In this document: positions 1 through 16,482 of the stretch, piece by piece
Layout: each line of letters opens with the position of its first letter
How positions within the stretch are numbered: position 1 is the first letter of the stretch
NCBI GenBank assembly: GCA_048268245.1
Contig: JBLWVX010000045.1
Coordinates: 1-16,482 of the forward strand
Source: Arcobacteraceae bacterium
Lineage (GTDB): Bacteria > Campylobacterota > Campylobacteria > Campylobacterales > Arcobacteraceae
Length of the DNA: 16,482 nucleotides
Direction: 5' to 3'
Program-made: the position numbers and the translations under genes
The notes under the pieces: generated by a model
The model's database searches: none
Told to the model about the DNA's origin: nothing
Seen by the model: the letters and a program-made list of their open reading frames with translations, nothing else

Positions 1-116
1 TGGCTCAAAAAACTATAGATATTGATATGTTTTATTATATTGCAGTAATTTTGGTTATTGCATATTATAAACTATTGCAAATAATAGTAAAAAACAATAA
101 AGTTTATTCAAGTTAA
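1..116 (+). CDS. 3' end of a probable membrane-protein gene (partial, runs off the window start)
   Basis: Frame 3 is open from position 3 to TAA at 114-116 and reads AQKTIDIDMFYYIAVILVIAYYKLLQIIVKNNKVYSS*, a hydrophobic helix followed by a short basic tail. Confidence 0.55.
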   Translation, partial: AQKTIDIDMFYYIAVILVIAYYKLLQIIVKNNKVYSS

Positions 117-158
117 CTATTTGTTAATTTTTTATTATAAATTAGTTAATTTTGAGTA

Positions 159-166
159 GATATAAT
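159..166 (+). promoter_or_regulatory. Sigma70-type -10 box (gn-TATAAT) for the candidate sRNA
   Basis: GATATAAT at 159-166 with T/A-tract-rich upstream DNA; the predicted start near 173 coincides with the base of a hairpin. Confidence 0.65.
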
Positions 167-172
167 TTTCCT

Positions 173-299
173 ATAGATAAGTTGACGCAGCGACTTATTT
201 ATGTAAGTATTTTTAAGATAGAATTTCTTAAATATAAATAATTTTTTTTATGTTTCCTTGTGTTAAAAAGAGGTGTCAGTAATGGCACCTCTTTTTTTT
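173..299 (+). ncRNA. Candidate small regulatory RNA (~127 nt)
   Basis: It has its own -10 box, a 12-bp 5' stem (173-184/191-202, two G-U pairs), a 7-bp stem (212-218/226-232), an unpaired UUUCCUUGUG segment (253-262) and an intrinsic terminator. No credible ORF with an RBS is present. Confidence 0.65.
265..299 (+). terminator. Rho-independent terminator
   Basis: AAAAAGAGGTGTCA-GTAA-TGGCACCTC-T8: GC-rich stem with one G-U pair, a GNRA tetraloop and a T-tract. Confidence 0.9.
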
Positions 300-338
300 G
301 TCTAATTTTCTGTTATTCAATAAGTCTTAATGAATTTA

Positions 339-347
339 TGCTAATAT
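339..347 (+). promoter_or_regulatory. Possible extended -10 promoter (TGnTAATAT) for the helicase gene
   Basis: TGCTAATAT at 339-347 lies downstream of the terminator, so the helicase probably needs its own promoter here. Confidence 0.45.
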
Positions 348-387
348 TCCCAAATGACAAATCCTACTGAAAAAAATATATAAACTT

Positions 388-2457
388 ATGCCATTATCAA
401 ATTTAAATGAAGAACAACTAGAAGCGGCTACCTGTGATAGGGGATTTAACCTTATTATTGCTAGTGCAGGAACTGGAAAAACATCTACTATTGTTGGAAG
501 AATTGCAAACCTTATAAATAATGGTGTACAACCTAAAGAGATACTTTTATTAACTTTTACAAATAAAGCAGCAGCTGAAATGGTACAGCGTGTGGGTAAA
601 TTTTTTGGAAAAGATGTAGCCAAGCAAATTATGGCTGGAACCTTTCATTCCGTTTCCTATAAACTATTAAAAGAATTAGAAAAAAACATAACTTTAAAGC
701 AACCAAATGAATTAAAAACACTGTTTAAATCTCTTTATGAAAAAAGAGTTTTTTATGAAAGAGAAGAGGGTGTAAATCCATATGATGGTGGCTATCTTTA
801 TGATATGTATTCTTTATATCTCAATTCAAATGAGGGTGAGGACTTTGGTGAATGGGTAAAAAATAAAAACCCAGACCATGAACTTTATGTGATGATTTAT
901 GAAGATGTAGTCTTAGAGTTTAATGAGCTTAAGAAGAAATATGGTTATGCAAACTTTGATGATTTACTTACAATTATGTTAGAAACTTTAGAAGAAGAAG
1001 AGTTTGATTTTAAAGAGATTCTAGTAGATGAATATCAAGATACTAACCCTTTACAAGGTAGGCTTCTGGATGGTTTTAAACCTAAGTCACTTTTTTGTGT
1101 AGGAGATTATGATCAAAGTATTTATGCTTTTAATGGTTCTGATATTGGTATTATCTCAACTTTTTCAACTAGATATAAAGATGCAAAAGTTTATACGCTT
1201 AGGAAAAACTATAGGTCTTCAAAACCAATACTTGACTTAGCTACAAAAGTTATTGAGCATAATGAAAGGATTTATGAAAAAAATCTTGAGGTTATGAGAA
1301 CACAATCAAATCATAAGCCAAGACTTTTAGCTTTTAATGAACTATTTTCTCAATATCATTATATTTCAGAGTTGATTTCACAAAGTGAAACTCCACATAA
1401 TGAGATAGCTATAATCTTTAGAAATAACTCAAGTGCAGATGGTATTGAAGCTAATTTAAGAGAGTTTTCTATTCCTGCAAAAAGAAAAGGTGGAATGTCT
1501 TTTTTTGATTCTGTTGAGATAAAATTTATTCTTGATATGCTTGTAATGCAACTTTCACACAATGATATGATGGCATTTATTCATGTACTTGAACATGGAA
1601 AAGGAATAGGAAAAGCAATTGCAAAAGATATTTTTGATGCATTAATTAAACTTGGTAATGGGGATATGTTCAAAGGTTTATTTTCACCAGACCAAGATAT
1701 AAGAAATCCATATGAATCAAATAAAGTAAAAAATATTCAGTTAGGTTTATTTGATGATTTTATCGAGTTAGGTTCTGTTTCAAAGTTTAAAGATTGTGGT
1801 TTTGAAGAAGCATTTTTAGGAAATCCAATACTAAAACATCCAAAACTTTCAGTTGATGGGGCAAAATATATTTATGACTTCTATCTTTTATTAAAACATT
1901 TAAGAAGAAGTAGAAACCCTGAAACTTTAGTAACAAACATATCTTCGTCTATGATGTACTCAAAAATCAAAGAGTTATTAGCAACCAAAAGAGCAACTCA
2001 AAAAGATGGAACTATAAACATAATGCAAAAGACAAAAGGTCTAGCAAAAATAAACAGAAAAATCATGCTTCTAAAAAATCTATCTAGAAACTTCAATGAT
2101 TTATCTAAGTTTGTAAATTCTATGATTTTAGGTGGAAGTGAAATGAGTGAGGGAGATGGAGTAAATCTTTTATCTGTTCATGCATCAAAAGGCTTAGAGT
2201 TCAAAGAAGTTTATGTAATTGACCTTATGGATGGGAGATTCCCAAATAGGAAGCTTATGAGTAAGGGGGGAAGTATAGAAGAAGAGCGAAGACTTTTCTA
2301 TGTTGCTGTTACTAGAGCAAAAGACATACTTTATTTATCATTTGCAAAATATGACAAAATAAAAAAACTAACTTTTGTAGCTAGTTTATTTTTAAAAGAA
2401 GCAGGCTTAGTAAAAGGTGATGAGGATGAAAAAATAGCAGGAGATCCTCAAATATAA
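388..2457 (+). CDS. ATP-dependent DNA helicase, superfamily 1A (UvrD/Rep/PcrA family)
   Basis: Motifs: Walker A ASAGTGKT, Ia LTFTNKAAAEM, Ib GTFHS, Walker B VDEYQD, III GDYDQSIYAF, IV NYRS, V SVHASKGLEF, VI EERRLFYVAVTRAK. Confidence 0.96.
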   Translation: MPLSNLNEEQLEAATCDRGFNLIIASAGTGKTSTIVGRIANLINNGVQPKEILLLTFTNKAAAEMVQRVGKFFGKDVAKQIMAGTFHSVSYKLLKELEKNITLKQPNELKTLFKSLYEKRVFYEREEGVNPYDGGYLYDMYSLYLNSNEGEDFGEWVKNKNPDHELYVMIYEDVVLEFNELKKKYGYANFDDLLTIMLETLEEEEFDFKEILVDEYQDTNPLQGRLLDGFKPKSLFCVGDYDQSIYAFNGSDIGIISTFSTRYKDAKVYTLRKNYRSSKPILDLATKVIEHNERIYEKNLEVMRTQSNHKPRLLAFNELFSQYHYISELISQSETPHNEIAIIFRNNSSADGIEANLREFSIPAKRKGGMSFFDSVEIKFILDMLVMQLSHNDMMAFIHVLEHGKGIGKAIAKDIFDALIKLGNGDMFKGLFSPDQDIRNPYESNKVKNIQLGLFDDFIELGSVSKFKDCGFEEAFLGNPILKHPKLSVDGAKYIYDFYLLLKHLRRSRNPETLVTNISSSMMYSKIKELLATKRATQKDGTINIMQKTKGLAKINRKIMLLKNLSRNFNDLSKFVNSMILGGSEMSEGDGVNLLSVHASKGLEFKEVYVIDLMDGRFPNRKLMSKGGSIEEERRLFYVAVTRAKDILYLSFAKYDKIKKLTFVASLFLKEAGLVKGDEDEKIAGDPQI

Positions 2458-2472
2458 TATAAGGATTATTTA

Positions 2473-2520
2473 GCTATAATCGCGTATATTTTAAAGAAAA
2501 CATAACATTATAAATAGGAA
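2473..2520 (+). promoter_or_regulatory. valS promoter -10 box and RBS
   Basis: GC-TATAAT at 2473-2480 and AGGAA at 2516-2520 ahead of the ATG at 2526. Confidence 0.65.
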
Positions 2521-2525
2521 GTTTT

Positions 2526-5159: not shown

Positions 5160-5170
5160 TAGCTTTTAAT
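5141..5170 (+). terminator. Perfect 13-bp hairpin overlapping the valS stop codon (weak terminator or processing stem)
   Basis: ATTAAAAGCTATT (5141-5153), loop TCTT, AATAGCTTTTAAT (5158-5170). Confidence 0.55.
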
Positions 5171-5185
5171 AAAAAAGGCTTGAAA

Positions 5186-5950
5186 ATGAGATTTAAAACA
5201 GGTATAAAAGTTTGTCTATTAACACTATTTATTTTTCTTTTTCAAGGCTGTACTATAAATCAATCTACATTATCAAGTGCTGTTCAAACTAACTCAGCTT
5301 CTTTAGTTGCAAGTTATAGAAATGAAATTCTAAAAGATTTAAAAGAGTATAAAAAGAAGCTTGACCTACGAAACCCTTATGCCTATAATCAAAAGCTTTC
5401 AAAGAGTATTTACTCTCAAATAGAATCAAGACAAGACTATATAAATATTATTCAAGACGGTTATAAATTAGAAACAGCAAACGAATATTTATATTATGCT
5501 TTTACTCAAAATGATATAGAAAATAGAAATGATTTTCTAATTATTGGTATGTATAAACTAATCTATAAAGCTTTTGGATTAGAGAATAAACATCAATTTA
5601 TAGCAAGTCAATATAATAAAAAGTATATGCAAGAACTTTATACTTATCTACAAGTTATAAGATGGAAAATAAGAGAGAATAAAGACTTTAATGGTCAATA
5701 TCTTTTCAAAACATGGCAAAACAACTGGCAATTAGAACTTATGAAAAAAAATCATAACGACTTAAATATTATTAAAAATCTTGATTATATAAAGAACAAA
5801 AAAGAATCAATTTATAGTCATTCAAATTTTTCTTTTGAGATTTTAATGGAAAGAATACTTTTAAATGTAAAATATTCATTAAGACAAGTTGATGTTGAAC
5901 CATATGAATTAAGTATTTCAGCTATAAGAAGTTTTGCATTTATAATATAA
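5186..5950 (+). CDS. Uncharacterised lipoprotein
   Basis: Basic N-terminus, hydrophobic core and lipobox FQG-C. AAGG at 5175-5178 favours the ATG at 5186 over the TTG at 5180. Confidence 0.75.
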   Translation: MRFKTGIKVCLLTLFIFLFQGCTINQSTLSSAVQTNSASLVASYRNEILKDLKEYKKKLDLRNPYAYNQKLSKSIYSQIESRQDYINIIQDGYKLETANEYLYYAFTQNDIENRNDFLIIGMYKLIYKAFGLENKHQFIASQYNKKYMQELYTYLQVIRWKIRENKDFNGQYLFKTWQNNWQLELMKKNHNDLNIIKNLDYIKNKKESIYSHSNFSFEILMERILLNVKYSLRQVDVEPYELSISAIRSFAFII

Positions 5951-6014
5951 AATTATAAAACTAGAAGTTCATTTATTATAAAATATAATAATGCAATATT
6001 GTAGAAGTAATAAC

Positions 6015-7092
6015 ATGAACTATAAAAAAGACACTTACAGATTTATATCCATTTTTTTACTAGCTTTTTAGTTATTACTGTATTTCTAGCAAGTTTATAT
6101 ATAGTAAAAAAAGAAAAAACTTTAACAAATGAAATTTATGATTCCCTTTGAACATAATGAATCATATATTTTAGAAAAAGATTATGATGGCTTAAATTAG
6201 GTAGAGTATGTACTAGCAAATCCAAAGAGGTCTTTTAAAGTAACTATGTATAATAGTAAAGATGAGTTAAGGCATTTTAAATTGAATGTTTCTCAAAAGA
6301 ATCTGGATAGTTTTATAACTTTAACTGATATTACATATGAGATAAAATTAAAAGAAGAATCTAAATAAAAAGATAAGCTTATTTTCCAACAAAGTAAAAT
6401 GGCTTCAATTGCACAAATACTTTATAATATTACACATGAATGCAGACAGCCATTAAATGTTATAACAACAGCAGTAAGTTCTATTCAAATATATAGCAAA
6501 TGGAAAAATTAGAGGATAAAGAGCTTGATAATTCATGTAATATTATTGTAGATAAAGCAAAGTTTTTTTCAAATACAATTGAAAACTTTAGAAACTTTTT
6601 TGAGATTGATGAGTCTTTACAAAGAAAAAGTATAAGTGAAATAGGATCTCAAACTTTTGCTTTTAATTATATTGATAGTATTTTAAATGATAATAAAATT
6701 AAGTTAGAGTTTGAAATAAAAAATGACTTATATATAGAAATTTATGAAAGTGAATTTAAACAAGCTTTATTAAAAGTTTTAGAAAATAGTATAGACTCTT
6801 TAAAGAAAATCCAATAGAGAATAGAGTTATTTATATTTCAATAAGAGATACAACTTTATCTATAAAAGATTCTAGAAATAGTGTAGATGAAGAGATTTTA
6901 GATAAATTATTTGAACCATATTTTGCAACTAAACATAAAGTACTAGGTGTTGGACTTGGCTTATATATGGTTCAAGAAATACTTACAAAACAAATGAACT
7001 TTAAAATAAGCGTTAAAAATAGCGAATTTAATTATAATAAAGAAACTCTAAAAGGTCTAGAGTTTTCAATAGATTTAAAGCAAGAGAATTAA
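6015..7092 (+). pseudogene. Degraded membrane sensor histidine kinase (TM, PAS-like remnant, HisKA, HATPase)
   Basis: Fragments across frames: N-terminal TM helix, H-box QQSKMASIAQILYNITHECRQPLNVI (His codon 6435), N-box LLKVLENSIDSL, F/G2 boxes LFEPYFATK..GVGLGLY. In-frame stops at 6198 (TAG) and 6366 (TAA); frameshifts near 6065, 6497 and 6812; G1 box decayed to KDSRNS. Confidence 0.9.
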
Positions 7093-10000
7093 CTCTTGCT
7101 TTTTCTTACTTTATGAGTGATAGTATATAAAACTGGTAGATATATAAGATTTAAAATTGTTCCCCATAAAAGACCAAAACCTAGTGAAATAGCAGTAGGT
7201 TGGAATATAACTGCTTGACCTGTTGGGAAGAATATTAGTGAACTCATACCAATTAGTGTCGTAACAGTAGTAATAATAATTGGTCTAAATCTTTTTGTAG
7301 CTCTTTGGAATATTTCATTTAAAGTTTTTGCTTTTTTAAGATATGTCATCATAATAATACCATCATTAATTACAACTCCAGCAAGTCCTAAAGCTCCAAT
7401 CATAGATGGCATTGATAGATTTAGTCCCATTATCTTATGTCCTATTAAAACTCCTAAAATTGAGAAAGGAATAATACTCATTACGATAAATGTTTCTCTA
7501 AACGAGTTAAATAAGTAAAGCATTGAAAGCATAATTAAAACAAGTGCAAGTGCAGTTGCTAAAAGCATATCGTTTTTAAGATTCTTTTTCTTTTCTGCTT
7601 CACCTTTTAGAATTATTTTTATTCCATCTTCTTCTATTTTGTCAAGAGTTGGCTGTATCTTTTCAAGTACTTCTGTTGCTGTTACAATATCAGGATCTAC
7701 ATTTGCATAAATATAGAAGTTTTTTTCACCTTGATCTTTAATAAGCTGTTCAAAGGCTCTTAAAGTGTTTATTTCAACAACTTCATGTAAAAGTACATAA
7801 GTTCCATCATTTAAAGGAATTTGTGAGTTTCTAAAGCTTTCAAAGTCATCTTTATTTTGTGATTTAATTTTTATATCAAGCATCTCTTTTTCATCGAAGC
7901 TTACACCTTTTTTCTTAAGTAAATAAAGGTTTGAAAGATATGAACCTATAAAAGACTCATTAAGCCCTAAGGATTCACCATAATTATTAACTTTCAATTT
8001 TATTTCATCAATACCAAATTTTAAAGAGTTAGATACAGATTTTACTCCTTCAAAGCTTTTTATTTTTGTGTGTAAATTTTCAATTGCTTTTATGATTTTT
8101 TGATTGTTATTTGAAACTAAACCTATTTTTATATCTGATTTTACAGGACCTACTTTTTTTTCAAGTACTGAAATTTCTTCTAAGTTGTATTTCTCTTTAA
8201 AGTTTTTCTTTTCAATAAACTTTTTGATTTTAGCAGCTATTTTTTTAGATTTCTCTGTTCTTTCTCTACCTTCTTCATCATAATAAAAACTCAAATTTGG
8301 AGTTACATATTTATCTAAGATATTAGATGGTTTTAATTTTTTTAGTTCAACTGTCATATACATAACATATGGAAAGTTTTCAGTATTACCTCCAACATCT
8401 CTTCTGAATCCTGCAACAGAATCAATACTTTTTATAAAAAAGTCTTGCTCTTTTTTCATAAATTCTCGTTCAATTTCTTGAACAATTCTAAATGACTCTT
8501 CTAATGTAGTATTTGCATTAGCTTTTAGTGTAAGTTTTACATCTGATGCATCAAATTTAGGGAATAACTGAAATTTTGAATTAGTAAATTCATAATATGT
8601 TAATAGTGGAACCATTACTATAAATATAGTTAAAAATGTTTTTTTCCAGTTCATAAAGAAATGTATAATAGAGTTATAAACTTTATTTGCTTTTTCCCAT
8701 GATGCAACTTTTGCTCCATTTTTTAAAGTATGTGCTGCATGAATAGGTAAAAATAAAAATGATTCAATTAGTGATGCTACAACTAAAGCACTTAATGCAA
8801 TAGGAATTAATTTCATCACTTCTCCCATTGTTCCACTAATCATAAGAATCGGTAAAAATGAGAATAATGTAGTAAGTGAAGCAATAGTTACAGGTTTTAC
8901 CATTTCACTTGCACCCATAATTGCAGCTTCTTTAGGAGGGTGACCTTCTTCAATATGTTGTTGAATATTTTCACTTACAACAATAGCATCATCTACAACA
9001 ATACCTATTGCTATTAAAACCCCAACAAGAGAAATCATATTTATTGTATATCCACTAAAATACATGTAAATAGCAGCAATTACAAAAGATGTTGGAATAC
9101 CAATAGCAATAATAAATGACATTCTAAAGTTAATTAATATCATTACTAAAATAGTAATAAGCATAATTCCTAAAAGAATATTTGATACAACAATATTTAA
9201 TCTATCAGCGATTTTTTCACTATTATCATCTGCTATTGTGATATTTATATCTGGGTTTTGTTTCTCTAGATTTGGAAGTAACTTTTTAATTTGAGTTACT
9301 ATTCTTAATGCATCAGCTGTATCCGTTTGCTCAACTGCTAAAGATAGAGCATTTTTACCATTAAAAGAGTAAAGAGTAGAAGAGTCCTGATATTTTTTAG
9401 CAATAGTAGCGATATCTTTTATATATATGTTTTTATTGCTTATTTTAATTAAAGTATTTGCAAAATCTATTGCATTTTTTGCACCATTGTATGTGGAAAT
9501 ATAATAGTGTTTTTTAGGGTCTTCTATTTTTCCTACGGGGAAGATATATGAAATATTTGATATTGCATTAAAAATTTCATTTTTATTTAAACCTAAAGCT
9601 TCAATTTTTTTGTCATTTAATAAAACTTCAAAATATTTATCTGAATCACCATAGATTGTAATATCATTTATCCCTTCTATGTTTAGAATTTTACTTTTTA
9701 GATTATCTGCAAAAGGTTTTAATTCATCAGTATTGTATTTTGTGGAGGTTAAGGATATATCAACAACAGATCTACTTCTTTCAAGTACATTTACTGTTGG
9801 TTCATCCATATCTGATGGTAGATTTGATTTTACTAAAGCAATGGTATCTTTTATTTTATTTGCTTCGTTATATTTATCTTTTCCTTTTTTAAGCTCTAGT
9901 ACTATTGAGAATCGTCCAGGAGATATAACCGTAGTCATATTATCAACACTATCAATATTTTTTAGATTGTCTTCTATCTCAGCAACTGCCATTCTATCTA

Positions 10001-10181
10001 AAATATCAACAGAAGCCCCAGTATAGGAACCTCTAATAGAAATCATGTCAAGTTCAAAACTAGGGAAAATCTCTTTGGCTGTTTTATTATAAGACCAAAC
10101 TCCAATAGCAAAAACTAAAATAAAAAGTGTATAGTTTACTCTTGAATTATTTACAAAAAATCTAAGTAATTTATCAAACAT
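7089..10181 (-). CDS. RND efflux transporter permease subunit (AcrB/AcrD/AcrF family)
   Basis: 1030 aa with two large periplasmic loops and a 1+5+1+5 TM pattern; TM4 GIVVDDAIVVSENI, TM10 GVVINDGII, and RFRPIIITTVTT. RBS AGAAGG lies upstream. Confidence 0.95.
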   Translation of the reverse strand: MFDKLLRFFVNNSRVNYTLFILVFAIGVWSYNKTAKEIFPSFELDMISIRGSYTGASVDILDRMAVAEIEDNLKNIDSVDNMTTVISPGRFSIVLELKKGKDKYNEANKIKDTIALVKSNLPSDMDEPTVNVLERSRSVVDISLTSTKYNTDELKPFADNLKSKILNIEGINDITIYGDSDKYFEVLLNDKKIEALGLNKNEIFNAISNISYIFPVGKIEDPKKHYYISTYNGAKNAIDFANTLIKISNKNIYIKDIATIAKKYQDSSTLYSFNGKNALSLAVEQTDTADALRIVTQIKKLLPNLEKQNPDINITIADDNSEKIADRLNIVVSNILLGIMLITILVMILINFRMSFIIAIGIPTSFVIAAIYMYFSGYTINMISLVGVLIAIGIVVDDAIVVSENIQQHIEEGHPPKEAAIMGASEMVKPVTIASLTTLFSFLPILMISGTMGEVMKLIPIALSALVVASLIESFLFLPIHAAHTLKNGAKVASWEKANKVYNSIIHFFMNWKKTFLTIFIVMVPLLTYYEFTNSKFQLFPKFDASDVKLTLKANANTTLEESFRIVQEIEREFMKKEQDFFIKSIDSVAGFRRDVGGNTENFPYVMYMTVELKKLKPSNILDKYVTPNLSFYYDEEGRERTEKSKKIAAKIKKFIEKKNFKEKYNLEEISVLEKKVGPVKSDIKIGLVSNNNQKIIKAIENLHTKIKSFEGVKSVSNSLKFGIDEIKLKVNNYGESLGLNESFIGSYLSNLYLLKKKGVSFDEKEMLDIKIKSQNKDDFESFRNSQIPLNDGTYVLLHEVVEINTLRAFEQLIKDQGEKNFYIYANVDPDIVTATEVLEKIQPTLDKIEEDGIKIILKGEAEKKKNLKNDMLLATALALVLIMLSMLYLFNSFRETFIVMSIIPFSILGVLIGHKIMGLNLSMPSMIGALGLAGVVINDGIIMMTYLKKAKTLNEIFQRATKRFRPIIITTVTTLIGMSSLIFFPTGQAVIFQPTAISLGFGLLWGTILNLIYLPVLYTITHKVRKSKS

Positions 10182-10355
10182 ATATAACCTTCTTTTATAA
10201 TAAAAAAGAAATTATATTACAGGTTTATTAATCTATTATTAATACTATACATAGATTATTTTATAAAATTTTATAAAAAACACTAAAATTCGCACTTTCT
10301 ATATTTATTAACTCTCTTTTTTTACAATTTTTTATAAAAATAAATTTAAATATGT

Positions 10356-10372
10356 GACACAAAATCGACACA
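10356..10372. repeat. Direct repeat GACACA-N5-GACACA (11-bp period)
   Basis: GACACA at 10356-10361 and 10367-10372, within otherwise very AT-rich intergenic DNA. Confidence 0.6.
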
Positions 10373-10374
10373 GT

Positions 10375-10656
10375 TTAAAATGCTGTACATTTAATATATT
10401 GATTAAATTTTCTCTCTCTACATACTACATATATAATATTTCCTTCTTTTTTTGTTGTCATATATTTATTGTCTATTCTTATTGTAACTGTTCCATATTT
10501 TTTAACTCTAATATCAATTCTTGAATCTTTTGAGTATCTCATTATATTTTTGATTTTTCCACTAAATGGTTTGTTTAATAAATCTTTTTTCTTTTTAATA
10601 TTTACATCTGAAATTAAAAAACTTATTGAAATACATAGAATAATTATATTTTTCAT
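10375..10656 (-). CDS. Small, highly basic, probably exported hypothetical protein (93 aa)
   Basis: Strong RBS (AAAGGA) upstream, N-terminus MKNIIILCISISFLIS resembling a signal peptide, alternating beta-strand-like pattern, and two C-terminal Cys. Confidence 0.6.
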   Translation of the reverse strand: MKNIIILCISISFLISDVNIKKKKDLLNKPFSGKIKNIMRYSKDSRIDIRVKKYGTVTIRIDNKYMTTKKEGNIIYVVCRERKFNQYIKCTAF

Positions 10657-10674
10657 TTATATCCTTTATAAAAT

Positions 10675-11036
10675 TTAATTAACAATTACATATTTAAAAT
10701 TATAATAATTGTCCATCATTGTTTTAATAGCTGAAATATGAAGTACTTCTTTTTTTATATACTTCATTTCATTACTATGAAACACTTTTATATGTTCATG
10801 ATTTATTGATTTTTCTTTACTATAGTTCTTACATTGTATATCTATTTTCTTTAGTGCATATTAAATCAATACAATTATCACGCTTACTTTTTCAAGTCCA
10901 TTATAATTTACTTTATAACTAAGTTCTTCAAATTTTCTTCCTGTAAGCATTTCAAAATGAATACCTTTTTTTTCATTTTCTATATAAAATTCTTTTGTCT
11001 TTTTATATTTTCTTCTTTATATTCATTACTTTTATG
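10675..11036 (-). pseudogene. Pseudogene of an Mrr-like PD-(D/E)xK nuclease, paralogous to 15592-16155
   Basis: Aligns by eye to about 15592-16016, including identical blocks 10925-10968 = 15905-15948 (44 nt) and 10887-10917 = 15867-15897 (31 nt). Lesions: 1-nt deletion near 10886 leading to a stop, an 11-nt deletion near 10840, a 51-nt net deletion near 10755, and loss of the 5' TM-coding region. Confidence 0.92.
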
Positions 11037-11133
11037 ACGTTCTTTTATTATTTTATTTTTACTTTTTTACAGTTTTTATTAGTTCAGAAATTATATTTAA
11101 AGCTTCTTCAATTTCTTTTTTTGTATTTTAGTT

Positions 11134-11160
11134 AAAACAAGTAGATTTTTTATCTACTTG
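11134..11160 (-). terminator. Hairpin terminator overlapping the lapD stop codon
   Basis: On the minus strand: CAAGTAGAT-AAAAA-ATCTACTTG-TTTT, a perfect 9-bp stem (11138-11146/11152-11160). Confidence 0.65.
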
Positions 11161-13375
11161 CTCCATATAAATTAAACTTTTTAACAGTTTGTAAGTCATC
11201 ATCTTCTTTTACATTTTCTGCAAATACTTTTATGTTTAAAAGTGATGATAATTCAGTTATTGCTTCAACAAAACTTTGTTTTGAATGATCGTTACAAATA
11301 TTATTTGTATAGTCTCTAGCTAATCTAATATAGTCTAAATTAAAGTCTTTGATATTATCAAGAGCAATAAATTTAGTTTCAAATCTTTTGATAATTATTT
11401 TTGCTTTACATTTATGTATTTCATCAGCAAAGAATTTGAATTTTTCCACATCTTTAGCTGCTGCATATGCTGTAATTGAGAATACTAACTGACTTGCAAT
11501 AGTTTTATGTGTTGATAAAGTTTTATCAAGCCAAGCAATAAAGGCAGTATTATTTATAGACTCTAAAGATAGATTGATAGATATTTCATGCTTAATATTA
11601 TTCATTATGATATGGTTGATTACTTTTTCTATAACTTTCATATCAAACTGCATAATTTTTTCATATCTTTCTGCAATTGATACAAATGTACCTATTGGAA
11701 TATCATTATCATCTTTATCTTTAGCACTAGTAAAGGCCTCTTGCATTAATATAACATCTTTATTTTTTTCATCAAGTGTTTTAGCATCAGATATGTATTT
11801 TACATTGAATTTAGAATTTTCAATGATATCAAATACTAAGTCTCTCCAAGATTCCATGTCTCTTGATAAATCATTTTTATCTCTAATATGAGCTTCGTTT
11901 GACCCAATAATAGTAGCTTTTTCATAAGCCTCCATTGCTGCTTGAAGCATTTCAGGTGTTGTTCCTATTTGATTAAAAGGAGTAGCTCCAATATGAACAA
12001 TATCTTTTTTATTGTATTCATTTGAAAGTTTTTCAAAGTTTTCTTTTAGTTTTTTTGTAAATGAAACAGCATCTTCATATGTCAAGTTTTTACCAATCAT
12101 TGCAAATTCTGAACCAAAGAATCTATAAGCTTTTGTTGTACACTTTTCATTTTCTAGTTTAGTTGACTTTAAAATATTTGCAAATTTTTTAATGAAGTCA
12201 TTTACTTCTTTGTTTGTATGGGATTTTGCAAAACTTGCTAAGTTGAATATTTTTATAATAAATACATACCCATCGTCTTTATGAATAAACATATTTTTCA
12301 TATCTGTTTCAAAATTTTGTTTTAATTCTAAAGATGTGATTTCATCTTTAGATAGTTTATGCGTGATTGACTCTAGGTTTTTGTTAAGTTTATTAATAAT
12401 TGCTTCTATTTTTGTAGACATATCATTCATTGCAATTGCTACATTTTTTATCTCAGTTGTCCAAGGAAGTTCTTTTATAGTATCAAATTTACCAACAGCA
12501 ATATTATTTGCTAATTTCTCAATTCTTTTAAGAGGTTTTAGTAGGTATTGAACAAAAATAAATAGAATTATCATAGATATTACAAATGCAACAACAGCAT
12601 AAATAATAGCCCCTTTAAACTGCTCATATAGTTTGGCATAAGCTTCTCCTGCATTTGCACTTACATAAATTACTGCTGTAGTTTTCCACCCATCAGAAAT
12701 TTCACTATATTTTTCTTCAAGATTTATAGGAACTAAATCTATAAACCATTTTGGTACATAATCAAACTTCTCTTTTCTTATAACTTGTGCAATTATCTTG
12801 TTTATAGAGAGATTTGCAAAAGTGTCAATAGTTTGGCCTTTATCATTTTGAACTGTAAAATTAAAAGTGATAGTTCCACCATTTCTATATTCGTTAGATG
12901 GGATAAAAGAGTATTTCTTTTCTTCAAGTACAAAACCTAAGTCTTCATCTTTTTGTCCATTTTCAAGTTGTGATAATTCTTGAGATATCTCTAAGTCAGA
13001 TGAATTCTCTTCAAGTTTCCCAAAACTTTTGTCAATAGAGATTTTTTTTATTTTCCAATCAAGACTATCTAAGTCTGAAGAAGCTTCAATCAAACTAGAT
13101 TCACTTATTGTAAAATGTGCATCTTCAAGTCTTATTTCTTTATAAAATCCTCTATTTGCAATAGCACTTATGATTGTTCTAATTTCTGCACTATTTTTAT
13201 CATGAATTAAAGGTTTTAAAGTCATACCTAATGATGTAGCTGTATCTTGTGCTTTTGTGATAGATTCACTTTGTAAATAAGCCTTAGTATTGTTTACGCT
13301 TATTATAAAGTTACCAAAAAATATTATAAAAAAGATAAAGGCGATTATAATATACAACTGTTTTGATAGAGACAT
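11150..13375 (-). CDS. lapD: LapD-family transmembrane c-di-GMP receptor (LapD/MoxY periplasmic domain, HAMP, degenerate GGDEF, degenerate EAL)
   Basis: N-terminus MSLSKQL, AQDTATSLG, VPKWF and SDGW (LapG-binding Trp loop) are LapD hallmarks. HAMP LKPLKRIE; GGDEF replaced by FGSEF; EAL domain lacks catalytic residues; gene lies directly downstream of lapG. Confidence 0.93.
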   Translation of the reverse strand: MSLSKQLYIIIAFIFFIIFFGNFIISVNNTKAYLQSESITKAQDTATSLGMTLKPLIHDKNSAEIRTIISAIANRGFYKEIRLEDAHFTISESSLIEASSDLDSLDWKIKKISIDKSFGKLEENSSDLEISQELSQLENGQKDEDLGFVLEEKKYSFIPSNEYRNGGTITFNFTVQNDKGQTIDTFANLSINKIIAQVIRKEKFDYVPKWFIDLVPINLEEKYSEISDGWKTTAVIYVSANAGEAYAKLYEQFKGAIIYAVVAFVISMIILFIFVQYLLKPLKRIEKLANNIAVGKFDTIKELPWTTEIKNVAIAMNDMSTKIEAIINKLNKNLESITHKLSKDEITSLELKQNFETDMKNMFIHKDDGYVFIIKIFNLASFAKSHTNKEVNDFIKKFANILKSTKLENEKCTTKAYRFFGSEFAMIGKNLTYEDAVSFTKKLKENFEKLSNEYNKKDIVHIGATPFNQIGTTPEMLQAAMEAYEKATIIGSNEAHIRDKNDLSRDMESWRDLVFDIIENSKFNVKYISDAKTLDEKNKDVILMQEAFTSAKDKDDNDIPIGTFVSIAERYEKIMQFDMKVIEKVINHIIMNNIKHEISINLSLESINNTAFIAWLDKTLSTHKTIASQLVFSITAYAAAKDVEKFKFFADEIHKCKAKIIIKRFETKFIALDNIKDFNLDYIRLARDYTNNICNDHSKQSFVEAITELSSLLNIKVFAENVKEDDDLQTVKKFNLYGASR

Positions 13376-13388
13376 GTTTTTTCCTTTT

Positions 13389-14030
13389 TTAAATTCTACT
13401 CATTAAGCTTTTCCAAGCTTTAAGATTGTTTTTTATTTTAACTGACCCTTTGTTTTTTGCTTGCCATAAGCCACTTGCGTTAAAACTATAAATAGGCTTT
13501 AAATCTTTTCTTTTTGAAGCTAATTTTAGTTTTTTATTAATATTATCTAATACAATAGGCGTTGCCTCTGGCTTATGGTAATATGTTAGAACCATATGAG
13601 CTTGGTCGTATTTACTGTTTCTTTTTTGATAGATAACATAAGTAATTCTAAGTTTTTCTTCTGGAACACCAAGTTTTTTTAAACTAAAGTATTTAGCAAT
13701 AGCGAAATCTTCACAATCTCCAGCTCCTGTACCCATAAATTCAAATGGTGTTGCCCAATAGTCTTTTTTTTTCCAATGTACAGGATCAGTTTTATATGTT
13801 ATCTTATTAAAAAAGTCATTAACATTTTTAAGTTTATATAATATTTTTTCATTTTGATTTTTTTGAAGCATTTTATCCCAAAGTTCAACTCTTTTAAAGG
13901 CTTTGTTACCATATTTTGTTTTTACTTGATTAAGTTTAGAGTTACTTATAAACTGTGTTGAACTAGCAATAGAGTTAATTATAAAAACAAAGAAGAAAGT
14001 TATGAAACTGTAAAGTAAAACTTTTTTCAA
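13389..14030 (-). CDS. lapG: LapG-family periplasmic transglutaminase-like cysteine protease (BTLCP)
   Basis: Signal peptide; DYWATPFEF, GDCEDFAIAKY (catalytic Cys), AHMVLTYY (His), VLDNI (Asp). TTG start with GGAG RBS at 14037-14040. Confidence 0.95.
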   Translation of the reverse strand: MKKVLLYSFITFFFVFIINSIASSTQFISNSKLNQVKTKYGNKAFKRVELWDKMLQKNQNEKILYKLKNVNDFFNKITYKTDPVHWKKKDYWATPFEFMGTGAGDCEDFAIAKYFSLKKLGVPEEKLRITYVIYQKRNSKYDQAHMVLTYYHKPEATPIVLDNINKKLKLASKRKDLKPIYSFNASGLWQAKNKGSVKIKNNLKAWKSLMSRI

Positions 14031-14081
14031 AACTGACTCCTTTTTAGTTTATTTAATTTTATAGTATATATCTTTAAAAAG

Positions 14082-15392
14082 TTATTTTAAAAGGGCTTTT
14101 ATTGACTCTTTGTCAATTTTCTCATCATTATATTTAATAGCAATGATTTTTTCAGTATTGTTTAAGTACCACTCATCAATACCTTCATGTTCTAAATTCT
14201 CTTTTTTGTCTAAATTGTATTCATCTATTGGAAGATAAACAAATTTTTTCTTTGTAGGGTTTGGCATAGTAATAATTAAAATTGCCCAAGCAACACAAAC
14301 AATTGCAATAGCAATTACAATAGCACTTAAAGAAGTATTTTCAAAGAACATACCACCTAGTAATCCACCTAAGAATGTACCTAAGTATCCAAAAGAGTTA
14401 AAAATACCTAAAACTAAACCTCTTTGATGAACTTTTGCAAACTTTGTTGCAAGTGATTGCATAATAGGTTCATGCATATTAAATCCAATAAAGAATAAAA
14501 CAACACCAATAATAAATACAACAGATGAACCACTTAAACCAATAACTAAATAAGAAATACCAAATAAAGCAATACCAATTACAAGGATTTCTTTAAATTT
14601 TCCTTTTTTCTCTGCGATAATTGCAGCAGGAGCCATTGCTAAGAATCCAAAAATCATAGCAGGTAAATATACTTGCCATAAATCAGACATTTGCCATTCA
14701 TATGATCTTAATAAAACCATTGGAATAATCATAAATGCAAAAGTCATTAAACCTTTTTGTAAAAAGTTTGTAATATTCATTTTTACTAAGTTCGCATTTA
14801 AAAGTACAGAACTTAACTTTGTTTTTCCATTGTATGTATGTGTAATATGTGGAGGGTTTGGAACCATTTTAAGTAAAACAAAAATAGAACCTAAAGCTAA
14901 AACCATAGTGATATAAAATAAAGACTCAACTCCTAAAGCTGAACCTAAAGTAGGACCTGCAAGCATTGAAACTGCAAAAGAAATACCAATAAACATACCC
15001 ATAGTAGCCATTGCTTTTGGTCTTTGTTCTTCTTTTACTAAATCACTAATCATTGCTGTAACTACTGCTCCAATAGCACCTGCACCTTGTAAAAATCTTC
15101 CTAACATTAAACTATAGATATCTGTTGAAACTGCACAAATTAGTGAACCTATTGCAAAAAGAATAAGTCCCATAACAATAGTACCTTTTCTTCCAAGTTT
15201 ATCACTTATAATTCCAAATGGAACTTGAAATAGCATTTGTGTTAGTGCATAACCACCAATAACAATACCTACAAGTGTAGTTGTTGCTCCTTCTAAATTT
15301 ATAGCGTATACAGATATTACTGGTAAAACTAAAAATAGACCTAAAAATCTTAGGGCTATAATTAAACTAAGTGGTAAAACCGATTTAATCAT
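14082..15392 (-). CDS. MFS transporter, YajR-like
   Basis: About 12 TM helices, LRFLGLFLVLPV, motif A GIISDKLGRKG, GRFLQGAGA, and a short soluble C-terminal domain as in YajR. Confidence 0.92.
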   Translation of the reverse strand: MIKSVLPLSLIIALRFLGLFLVLPVISVYAINLEGATTTLVGIVIGGYALTQMLFQVPFGIISDKLGRKGTIVMGLILFAIGSLICAVSTDIYSLMLGRFLQGAGAIGAVVTAMISDLVKEEQRPKAMATMGMFIGISFAVSMLAGPTLGSALGVESLFYITMVLALGSIFVLLKMVPNPPHITHTYNGKTKLSSVLLNANLVKMNITNFLQKGLMTFAFMIIPMVLLRSYEWQMSDLWQVYLPAMIFGFLAMAPAAIIAEKKGKFKEILVIGIALFGISYLVIGLSGSSVVFIIGVVLFFIGFNMHEPIMQSLATKFAKVHQRGLVLGIFNSFGYLGTFLGGLLGGMFFENTSLSAIVIAIAIVCVAWAILIITMPNPTKKKFVYLPIDEYNLDKKENLEHEGIDEWYLNNTEKIIAIKYNDEKIDKESIKALLK

Positions 15393-15537
15393 TTGTAATC
15401 CTAAACATAATATAATTTCTTGTGATTATATATAATTAATACTTAGAATTGCATATTTCCCATTATTTCGTAAAATAGGTGCTTTATTACTTTTAATTTT
15501 CTTGTTTTCTATTTCAGATAAGAAAACTTATTAAATG

Positions 15538-15561
15538 TTGGTCATTTTTTTGGTCATTTTT
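15538..15561. repeat. Tandem direct repeat TTGGTCATTTTT x2 (12-bp period)
   Basis: Exact copies at 15538-15549 and 15550-15561. Confidence 0.7.
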
Positions 15562-15591
15562 TTTACTTATTTTTATGGTAATTTATATATT

Positions 15592-16155
15592 TTAATTTAC
15601 AATTATATACTTACAATTATAATAATTATCCATCATTGTTTTTACAGCTGATATATGAAGTACTTCTTTTTTAGGAACTGCATATTTTAGTTCTATTTGG
15701 TTTTCATTTAGATTATTCTTTTTTATGTATTTCATCGCGTTACTATGGAATACTTTTATGTGTTCATGAGTTATTGATTTTTCTTTGCTGTAGTTTTTGC
15801 ATTGTATAAGTAATGTTTTTCTATTCTCTTTAGTGCATATTAAATCAATACCATTATCACGTTTACCTTTTTCAAGTCCATTATAATTTACTTTATATCC
15901 ATGCTCTTCAAATTTTCTTCCTGTAAGCATTTCAAAATGAATACCTTTCTCTTCATTTTCTATATGAAATTCTTTTTGTTTTTTTATAATTTCTTCTTTA
16001 TATTCATTACTTTCATGAAGTTTTGTTATTACTTCAGATCTTTTTTTATACAATTCTTTTTCTTTTTGTATTTTCTTTATTTTGTATATTATGAAGTACA
16101 GAACAACTAGAAACACTAACAACATTATAAGTATTGGAAAAATTATATTTAGCAT
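15592..16155 (-). CDS. Membrane-anchored Mrr-like (PD-(D/E)xK) restriction-endonuclease-fold protein
   Basis: N-terminal TM helix (aa ~3-24), charged coiled-coil linker, then GIHFE...GYKV...DNGIDLI...IQCK, the Mrr_cat-type motif. RBS AAAGGGG. Confidence 0.85.
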   Translation of the reverse strand: MLNIIFPILIMLLVFLVVLYFIIYKIKKIQKEKELYKKRSEVITKLHESNEYKEEIIKKQKEFHIENEEKGIHFEMLTGRKFEEHGYKVNYNGLEKGKRDNGIDLICTKENRKTLLIQCKNYSKEKSITHEHIKVFHSNAMKYIKKNNLNENQIELKYAVPKKEVLHISAVKTMMDNYYNCKYIIVN

Positions 16156-16215
16156 ATTACCCCTTTAAAGGCAGTATTTTACAAGATATTTAATTATATT
16201 TGCATAATATAAAGG

Positions 16216-16482
16216 TTATTTATCATTTTCTTTTATTTTTCTCATCTCTTCTTCTAGGAATTCCATTCTTTTTAATATTAAATCTACTTTCTCATCATAT
16301 TCATCTTTTTTATTTTTTGTAATAATTTCATCTTTCTTTTGTAAATTTTCATATTTTAAACCTAATTCAATAATTTTAATTAATTCTGGTTTGTCTTTTT
16401 CCCAATTATATATAGTTCCAACAGATGTATTAAATCTTTTTGCAAGTAATTCTTTTTCTTTTCTACCTAAATTTTTAATATT
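16216..16482 (-). CDS. Partial small HTH (XRE/Cro-like) regulator with C-terminal coiled coil; start lies beyond the window
   Basis: Not in the ORF track. My translation is NIKNLGRKEKELLAKRFNTSVGTIYNWEKDKPELIKIIELGLKYENLQKKDEIITKNKKDEYDEKVDLILKRMEFLEEEMRKIKENDK*; LAKRFNTSVGTIYNWE fits an HTH. Confidence 0.8.
   Translation of the reverse strand, partial: NIKNLGRKEKELLAKRFNTSVGTIYNWEKDKPELIKIIELGLKYENLQKKDEIITKNKKDEYDEKVDLILKRMEFLEEEMRKIKENDK

Follow-up and report, generated by a model that had tools for sequence, protein, structure and literature searches.

A LapD-type receptor gene of an Arcobacteraceae bacterium encodes a cadherin-like module (a predicted beta-sandwich), of the class repeated in giant adhesins, inserted into the hairpin between strands 1 and 2 of the periplasmic output domain. 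The gene lies on contig JBLWVX010000045.1 of GenBank assembly GCA_048268245.1, within the stretch of 16,482 nucleotides (positions 1 to 16,482 of the forward strand) that was analyzed and is referred to here as the window. It occupies positions 11150..13375 on the minus strand (an open reading frame [ORF] of 741 aa, stop codon included in the coordinates), and its assignment is based on homology to LapD. The insert comprises residues 84-192 (12800..13126, minus strand), and a gene for the cognate LapG protease adjoins the receptor gene. LapD and LapG are a textbook case of inside-out signaling by c-di-GMP (cyclic dimeric GMP), in which the output domain of LapD is treated as a minimal PAS-like clamp for LapG.

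The limits of the insert were defined from the translation and from alignments with proteins that lack it. Window positions 12800-13126 translate on the minus strand to exactly the 109 residues (EDAHFTISE...FANLSIN) that a previous reading of the DNA, made from its letters alone and called here the sequence-only reading, had described as an extra block within a short turn of canonical LapD. The Pfam LapD_MoxY_N profile is broken after its position 65 by about 105 residues: residues 23-87 of the protein cover profile positions 1-65, and the match resumes after the insert with positions 69-124. Against the output domain of Legionella LapD (4u64), query positions 2-65 aligned with chain residues 2-65 and query positions 184-230 with chain residues 80-126, leaving 118 residues in the query versus 14 in the solved chain. 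When the protein was aligned with 17 LapD homologues from the same phylum that have no insert (624-653 aa), the whole block fell into one gap between RLED and KIIAQ. The split Pfam match, the 4u64 alignment, and the phylum alignment thus bear out the description of a 741-aa LapD with an extra block at this place.

The same reading had taken the protein for a LapD-type receptor, which agrees with the LapD_MoxY_N match (PF16448; 95-98.6 bits versus a cut-off of 25, in two stretches), with the matches to solved LapDs, and with the adjoining LapG gene. Among solved sequences, those nearest to the periplasmic part were Legionella CdgS9 (4u64) and Pseudomonas fluorescens LapD (3pjv), in each case the output domain, and the best solved match of the cytoplasmic part was P. 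fluorescens LapD (3pjw, E = 5.8e-19). A Foldseek search with the whole periplasmic model returned 4u64 as its top match (E = 3.3e-5, target-normalized TM score of 0.77). Among NCBIfam models, the LapD equivalog NF045673 was the best match, again in two stretches (E = 6.8e-85, 285.7 bits; the cut-off of 1020 bits was not reached). In the Pfam scan of LapD, EAL scored 101.6 bits, GGDEF barely passed its cut-off (24.4 versus 23.8 bits), and HAMP remained below its own (19.6 versus 25 bits). FGSEF and KRFETKF of the window protein align with RGGEF and QRFGGRF of P. fluorescens LapD, respectively; such degenerate GGDEF/EAL motifs mark inactive domains.

All parts of the receptor are encoded on the minus strand. 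A putative first transmembrane helix (about residues 6-27, 13295..13360), read by eye from the translation as the hydrophobic run QLYIIIAFIFFIIFFGNFII, overlaps the start of the first half of the LapD/MoxY domain (residues 23-83, 13127..13309; Pfam profile positions 1-65), which comprises helix 1, helix 2, and strand 1 in the AlphaFold2 (AF2) model. The second half follows the insert (residues 193-250, 12626..12799; Pfam profile positions 69-124, 4u64 chain residues 80-126) and comprises strand 2, the PxWF helix, strand 3, the GW loop, strand 4, and a helix. A putative second transmembrane helix (about residues 255-279, 12539..12613; hydrophobic run GAIIYAVVAFVISMIILFIFVQYLL, also read by eye) leads to the cytoplasmic HAMP, degenerate GGDEF, and degenerate EAL domains (11171..12553; Pfam residues 275-324, 351-488, and 539-735). 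According to two published studies, the tryptophan loop of LapD docks LapG (PMC3032553, PMC4359373). This loop is intact, as the sequence-only reading stated: SDGW occupies residues 227-230 (12686..12697), with the codon of W230 at 12686-12688. The periplasmic domain of the window protein was aligned with those of orthologues from 20 other genomes in its family, at least 14 genus-level groups being represented in all, and the inserts were aligned separately; the Trp of the GW loop is invariant in all 21 and the Gly is at least 90% conserved. The loop reads SDGWKT (residues 227-232), with T instead of the Q of GWxQ; most of the 17 aligned Campylobacterota homologues that lack the insert do not keep this Q either. 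We hold this anatomy, and the assignment of the gene pair to LapD and LapG, with high confidence.

To identify the module, we compared the insert with domain profiles. The sequence-only reading had suggested a Pfam check of excised residues 84-192, and these passed Cadherin_5 (PF17892; 30.4-30.5 bits, E = 3.5e-7, cut-off 26.5); in full-length LapD, the same model scored 20.3 bits, under the cut-off. The NCBIfam tandem-95 model (NF012211) gave 31.5 bits on the insert (E = 1.3e-7), under its multi-repeat cut-off of 90 bits. Taken individually, 9 of the 21 orthologous inserts matched Cadherin_5 at E <= 0.01. A profile of the 21 inserts, searched against 1.84 billion representative proteins, returned 223 matches at E <= 0.001 (best E = 1.3e-170), and the top-ranked matches were giant proteins with up to 51 matched stretches each. 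All five of the non-LapD matches that were scanned contain 16-32 Cadherin_5/Big_9 repeats, three of them also contain repeats-in-toxin (RTX) sequences, and three are named cadherin-like or tandem-95 repeat proteins by their sources. Among the 150 matches listed, 23 were LapD-like proteins with the insert at the equivalent place (about residues 81-195), colinear with the window protein at 32-60% identity. A search of the insert sequence against the Protein Data Bank returned only spurious designed coiled coils.

The profile matches also delimit which parts of an adhesin repeat are present. The best Cadherin_5 stretch covers profile positions 18-59 and the tandem-95 match covers positions 15-87, and positions 1-17, corresponding to the first strand, are unmatched. 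Within adhesin repeats, insert-profile positions 4-43 and 72-111 match back to back, about 3 residues apart; positions 4-43 scored 12-21 bits per repeat in four of the five top matches checked and about 4-7 bits in the remaining one (P0130). In the window protein, the N-terminal half of the module consists of residues 85-123 (13007..13123, minus strand), with three strands and a short helix matching Cadherin_5 positions 18-59, and the C-terminal half of residues 154-192 (12800..12916, minus strand), with three strands and a YxFxP motif, insert-profile positions 72-111 of which match the second half of the adhesin repeat. Between these halves, residues 124-153 (12917..13006, minus strand) form a nested element, in which a conserved amphipathic helix (ELxxLEN) leads to an acidic loop that is variable and is predicted to be disordered in the AF2 model. 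This element of about 28 aa replaces the turn of about 3 residues between insert-profile positions 43 and 72 and has no counterpart in adhesin repeats; it also accounts for the acidic stretch of about 30 aa noted previously. On the basis of these alignments, the LapD module is one repeat minus its first 17 or so profile positions, plus a nested element of about 28 residues. The earlier identification as an adhesin-type cadherin-like domain therefore holds for the Cadherin_5/tandem-95-like sequence and the predicted beta-sandwich, but the repeat is incomplete, lacking its first strand and having gained a helix and a loop. The insert profile found no second copy of the module in LapD or elsewhere in the genome. 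Adhesin repeats typically carry calcium motifs in a DxDxD-type loop and an xNDAP-type linker, and the adhesin repeats of this genome show VNDxP and SDxDG. Across the 21 LapD inserts, DxDxD-type and NDAP-type motifs are not conserved: residues vary in the matching columns, and the sequence at the C-terminal junction is (N/S/D)K(I/V)L.

The AF2 model of the periplasmic part, built from the 21-sequence alignment, had a mean predicted local distance difference test score (pLDDT) of 85.2 and a predicted TM score of 0.74; a separate model of the insert alone had a pLDDT of 72.4, and both models were beta-sandwiches. In the numbering of the periplasmic model (residue number minus 22), the first half of the LapD domain contains helices at 5-34 and 41-51 and a strand at 56-63. 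This strand 1 continues into the first strand of the module (66-69), and the last strand of the module (160-169) continues into LapD strand 2 (172-177). Six strands were predicted within the insert, together with the nested helix (105-116) and a disordered loop (pLDDT < 50 at 120-127). Loss of the first strand from a seven-strand sandwich would put both chain ends at one pole, as insertion into a hairpin requires. VIA-align comparisons of the insert-only model gave a best Z score of 6.1 (immunoglobulin [Ig]-like domain of PorM) and scores of 5.4-5.8 for many extracellular cadherin domains, where Z < 8 may reflect only a common arrangement of elements, and Foldseek found nothing at E <= 0.001 for the same model. 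Because these structural neighbors are weak, the fold assignment rests mainly on the sequence profiles.

Published descriptions of LapD indicate where the module would be located. According to PMC3032553, the PxWF segment that links strands 2 and 3 lies at the membrane face, and the most distal point is the Trp in the loop that joins strands 3 and 4; according to PMC4359373, the relevant form is a parallel PAS-like dimer, on which LapG docks laterally, contacting the GW loop in one protomer and helix 2 in its partner. Since strand 2 leads down to PxWF at the membrane face, the turn between strands 1 and 2 must be distal, beside the GW loop. By this topology, the hairpin tip that bears the predicted module would lie at the membrane-distal end of the domain, next to the GW loop. 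A complex prediction for two periplasmic domains and one LapG, each supplied as an alignment, scored 0.10 against a mark of 0.32, without controls, and is evidence neither way.

To determine how widely the insert is distributed, we searched 151 sampled genomes of the window's family; the names that sources give to relatives (Arcobacter, Poseidonibacter, Halarcobacter, and Aliarcobacter), together with the taxonomy of Poseidonibacter, point to Arcobacteraceae as this family. A LapD/MoxY match was present in 118 of them. By a tally that is approximate, since it derives from per-genome match counts and E-values with 87 match rows unlisted, about 88 of these genomes have the split type only, 13 have both types, 16 have the contiguous type only, and 1 has a partial match. 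Insert-type LapD is thus encoded in about 101 of the 151 genomes, and we rejected the possibility that the insert is a peculiarity of this gene or genome. Elsewhere in the phylum (301 phylum genomes sampled), the split between profile positions 1-65 and 66-124 occurred in none of the 83 LapD-bearing genomes from other families, in which the LapD/MoxY domains are contiguous within frames of about 633-710 aa. Within Campylobacterota, whose orthologues the sequence-only reading had proposed to compare, the insert is thus widespread in Arcobacteraceae, to which the split type is confined in this sample. In a LapD tree computed with the insert columns dropped, all 14 insert-type sequences formed one clade (SH-aLRT 100, stem 2.11). 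The sampled clade holds no insert-free member, and the insert has been kept across at least 14 genus-level groups (21 orthologues). We conclude that the insert-type receptor, which arose once and stands on a very long stem, is the common LapD form across the family.

Other variants of the output domain were seen in these surveys. Three LapDs from other families have a different, smaller interruption at profile positions of about 37-45, in frames of 676-687 aa (G233:C8:65377-65859, G220:C15:146114-146569, and G427:C33:185021-185515), so that there seems to be more than one place in the LapD output domain where an insertion is tolerated. In a metagenomic protein of 1439 aa (P0224), an insert-type LapD-like part (residues 1-704) is joined to DUF6272 and a second GGDEF-EAL pair (869-1274); this could be a true fusion or an artifact of gene calling or assembly.

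We also examined the protease that partners the receptor. The LapG gene (13389..14030, minus strand, 213 aa) lies 13 bases upstream of the LapD gene on the same strand. Its product, a cysteine protease of the BTLCP type, matched Peptidase_C93 (PF06035, 58 bits) and the NCBIfam LapG model (E = 5.5e-62, 208.8 bits; the equivalog cut-off of 320 was not reached), as well as the solved LapGs 4fgo (E = 3.6e-48) and 4u65 (E = 2.3e-43). C73 (in GDCED), H112 (AHM), and D129 (LDN), which by their position are assigned as the LapG catalytic triad, are invariant in all 20 insert-associated LapGs. A LapG-sized ORF was found upstream of LapD in all 19 orthologous insert-type loci fetched. In a tree of 38 LapG sequences, the 20 insert-associated proteins, that of the window among them, formed one clade with support 100/100, and the stem of this clade measured 1.01 changes per site. 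The loop right before AHM is 4 residues longer in all 20 of these proteins versus none of the 18 others, and this extension is also absent from both solved LapGs. P. fluorescens LapG residues A169, Y176, V205, and Y206 cross-link to LapD, according to PMC4359373; with an offset derived from the 4u65 alignment, they correspond to A, Y, I, and Y here, and A169 aligns with the A of AHM that adjoins the longer loop. Insert-type LapD and its LapG have co-diverged.

Canonical, insert-free pairs of Arcobacteraceae and other Campylobacterota share the gene order of the insert-type pair: in each of the 18 loci fetched, the gene directly upstream of LapD is that of LapG. The two kinds coexist in some genomes. 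The canonical receptors (624-653 aa) have a short hairpin and fall outside the insert clade; their LapGs likewise fall outside the insert-associated clade and lack the 4-residue loop extension. A Peptidase_C93 gene was next to LapDs of both kinds where checked. Among the five genomes with both types that were checked, LapG lies beside both LapDs in three (G119, G083, and G114), and in the other two (G045 and G006) only the position of the canonical LapD was listed, with LapG. As a separate observation, two tandem LapG-like (Peptidase_C93) genes precede the insert-type LapD in one genus-level group (G119, G083, and G114; e.g., G119:C1:765094-766128), where the window has one.

The sequence-only reading had further proposed that the receptor captured a module resembling the LapD/LapG substrate. 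The genome does encode giant Cadherin_5/Big_9-rich ORFs with C termini that are acidic, as in substrates of type I secretion systems (T1SS), on the short contigs C48 (at least 3451 aa) and C55 (at least 1168 aa, with a von Willebrand factor A domain). The insert profile (hmmsearch --max) gave nothing better than an E-value of 0.45 against the 45 ORFs of at least 900 aa in the genome and, beyond LapD, nothing better than 0.14 against 6723 six-frame ORFs of at least 60 aa. Alignment of the insert with 11 of the genome's own adhesin repeats by hhalign reached a probability of 40.6%, in the C-terminal half only. The suggested comparison with the genome's own T1SS adhesin thus yielded a weak profile-profile match in that half and no significant sequence match. 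Recent capture from these adhesins was rejected for this reason; read as something recent, or as something that happened within this genome, the proposed capture is unsupported, the profile matching only LapD. As far as sequence can tell, the module is of the same broad repeat class and was not recently taken from C48- or C55-type genes. In five related complete genomes, the retention module NF033682 gave sub-cut-off matches only, in frames of 195-902 aa, and the one viewed was unlike a LapA-type adhesin by eye. The best such match in G002, a genome of the same genus, lies in locus L077 (G002:C1:2069687-2072893; ORF 1..1764, minus strand), which encodes an exported, serine/asparagine-rich protein of at least 588 aa with an N-terminal domain that looks FecR-like by eye. 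Separately, a 2010-aa open frame fills nearly the whole of the 6.4-kb contig C57 of the window's genome (G000, 331-6360, plus strand; L033); it has no Pfam match at E <= 1e-6 and is lysine/asparagine-rich and non-repetitive-looking.

Sequence constraint differs between the module and the domain that carries it. Across the 21 orthologues, mean pairwise identity was 0.73 and 0.65 for the two LapD core halves and 0.33, 0.37, 0.12, and 0.28 for the N-terminal half, helix, loop, and C-terminal half of the module, respectively. The lengths of these four segments are near fixed (38-40, 15-16, 11-17, and 37-39 residues). The insert has a net charge of about -11, with segment means of -4.0, -4.7, -3.0, and +0.8 in the same order. 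Within the ELxxLEN motif of the nested helix, L112 is invariant and L115 is at least 90% conserved.

By homology, the receptor would act at the inner membrane, where c-di-GMP would bind its degenerate EAL domain; the bound form would most likely capture periplasmic LapG on the Trp loop, and a surface adhesin would then be protected from release. The module would enter this scheme as a single cadherin-like sandwich without a first strand, its two ends together and fused strand to strand into the beta1-beta2 hairpin, with the conserved helix and the flexible acidic loop at its far end. We tentatively propose that it serves the LapG docking site as a rigid accessory, which would have co-adapted with a diverged LapG of its own, and that the affinity of LapG capture, its geometry, or its specificity for a partner would be shaped by the module. 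In favor of this are the long-stemmed clades of insert-type LapD and its LapG, the longer LapG loop beside the residue aligned with A169, the genomes in which LapDs of both types adjoin a LapG, and the distal strand 1-2 turn. We consider this role plausible but somewhat short of probable, and several results weigh against it. Where the module lies with respect to the GW loop and LapG follows from strand topology rather than from distances in coordinates. The conserved insert positions (W85, G97, L112, L115, and Y133) look like fold core and not like a surface patch, and the module surface is poorly conserved (pairwise identity of 0.28-0.37 versus 0.65-0.73 for the core), while the cognate LapG is well conserved (mean column identity of 76%); a large fixed interface between module and LapG would be expected to be better conserved. 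Since about 88 of the 151 family genomes seem to have the insert type only, insulation from a second system cannot be the general purpose of the module. On the substrate side, the retention module NF033682 had no match in this genome, and the N termini of the C48 and C55 proteins run off their contigs, outside the assembly, so that no cleavage site is visible.

The low sequence constraint would also suit a passive spacer or tolerated decoration, which would lengthen or stabilize the receptor in a wide periplasm without a specific partner and be kept because its removal would disturb folding of the hairpin. The tightly conserved length, weakly conserved sequence, and core-like conserved positions are consistent with such a role, as is the fact that canonical LapD, which lacks the module, works in the phylum's other families and, within this family, as a paralogue. 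Against it, the module is retained in at least 14 genus-level groups and no member of the sampled clade is free of it, the nested ELxxLEN helix is conserved, and the partner LapG has a matching loop change; we regard a mere spacer as doubtful. A fast-evolving surface would also fit a variable partner, as expected if the module were an outside-in sensor that binds calcium, an adhesin or T1SS part, or another envelope ligand at its acidic tip and, by way of the hairpin, relays this to the GW loop or to the other side of the membrane, so that LapG capture would depend both on c-di-GMP and on a cue from the envelope. The cadherin-like fold, shared with calcium-binding adhesin repeats, and the strongly acidic character of the insert (about -11 net) point in this direction; strand-to-strand fusion would couple the module mechanically to the output domain, and a periplasmic protein, in addition to c-di-GMP, is known to elicit a response from LapD (PMC5231407). 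However, neither the DxDxD-like stretch that precedes the conserved Trp nor the linker motif of NDAP type is conserved in the 21 orthologues, and no conserved surface patch is evident in them; similarity to the genome's own adhesin repeats is limited to the weak profile-profile match, with no detectable sequence similarity, and an adhesin or T1SS gene is not a conserved neighbor. A sensory role is unlikely in our judgment. Less likely again is the specific form of a two-way receptor, in which the acidic distal tip (helix plus loop) would bind calcium, or a periplasmic part of a cadherin-repeat adhesin or of its secretion channel, and would relay its occupancy to LapG capture because the module is fused strand to strand to the hairpin beside the GW loop; if this were true, adhesin release would be gated by an envelope cue besides cytoplasmic c-di-GMP. 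Ig-like domains commonly mediate lateral contacts, so the modules of neighboring receptors might also touch and favor a dimer of dimers with high LapG affinity. PMC5231407 reports that high LapG affinity needs such a dimer of dimers, but one formed via the cytoplasmic EAL domains, and the strongly acidic module surface would disfavor self-association without cations; we find clustering of this kind very unlikely.

Compared with P. fluorescens LapD and Legionella pneumophila CdgS9 (3pjv, 3pjw, 4u64, and 4u65), the window protein has the same order of transmembrane helix, PAS-like LapD/MoxY domain, transmembrane helix, HAMP, degenerate GGDEF, and degenerate EAL, with the Trp loop and an adjoining LapG. 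It differs in the roughly 105 extra residues, which are predicted to build a beta-sandwich of their own within the hairpin of strands 1 and 2, in its divergence (stem of 2.11, NCBIfam LapD score of 285.7 versus a cut-off of 1020, and GWKT rather than GWxQ), and in its neighbors, an MFS transporter and an RND pump in place of lapA or lapBCE-type genes. The two halves of the module are colinear with Cadherin_5/tandem-95 repeats of giant T1SS/RTX-type adhesins, with shared patterns such as EDxxFTFxxxxL...G.I and YxFxPxxxxxG...F. Unlike those repeats, the module is present in single copy, lacks positions 1-17, contains the nested element of about 28 aa, and does not conserve the acidic linker and loop motifs; unlike a secreted adhesin stalk, it is periplasmic and part of a receptor.

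The sequence-only reading knew of no described LapD with this architecture, and we found no description of a LapD with an inserted domain in the full-text literature, with subscription journals outside coverage. One database cluster (P0007) has already been labeled Cadherin_5 automatically; as far as we have seen, the architecture is thus latent in databases but not described. Relatives are named generically by public sources, as "EAL/GGDEF domain-containing" or "bifunctional diguanylate cyclase/phosphodiesterase" proteins, and curated models with NCBIfam cut-offs miss insert-type LapD, which leaves it with a generic annotation only. A bacterial family that includes food- and waterborne relatives of Arcobacter and many marine species uses a LapD with an adhesin-type domain grown from its clamp near the docking loop, together with a co-diverged LapG, and in some genomes this pair sits beside a canonical one. 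This is not a new kind of system, but for specialists in c-di-GMP and biofilms it offers a natural setting in which to study the specificity of LapD-LapG pairs, periplasmic inputs to the output domain, and the tolerance of a signaling fold for domain insertion in a hairpin.

The genes flanking the pair are shared with related loci. A major facilitator superfamily (MFS) transporter gene (14082..15392, minus strand; MFS_1, E = 3.2e-60) lies upstream of LapG on the same strand, and a resistance-nodulation-division (RND) efflux permease gene (7089..10181, minus strand; ACR_tran, E = 1.7e-139) lies downstream of LapD. The order MFS-LapG-LapD is present in seven of eight related loci and the RND permease is downstream in five of the eight; adhesin and T1SS genes are not conserved neighbors. 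The lapGD genes of Pseudomonas are flanked by adhesin and T1SS genes, whereas here the MFS transporter and RND permease flank LapG-LapD across several genera. The gap between LapD and the RND permease (10182-11149) measures about 970 bases versus about 100 in G002, and contains an ORF of 93 aa (10375..10656, minus strand) without a Pfam or NCBIfam match or a counterpart in the eight related loci. Beyond the permease, the interval 5950-7089 contains an ORF of 105 aa (6500..6817, plus strand) with 78% identity to part of an ORF of about 700 aa at the syntenic place in G002 (L086, 1025..3127); the window seems to retain only a remnant of that gene, or to have a deletion there.

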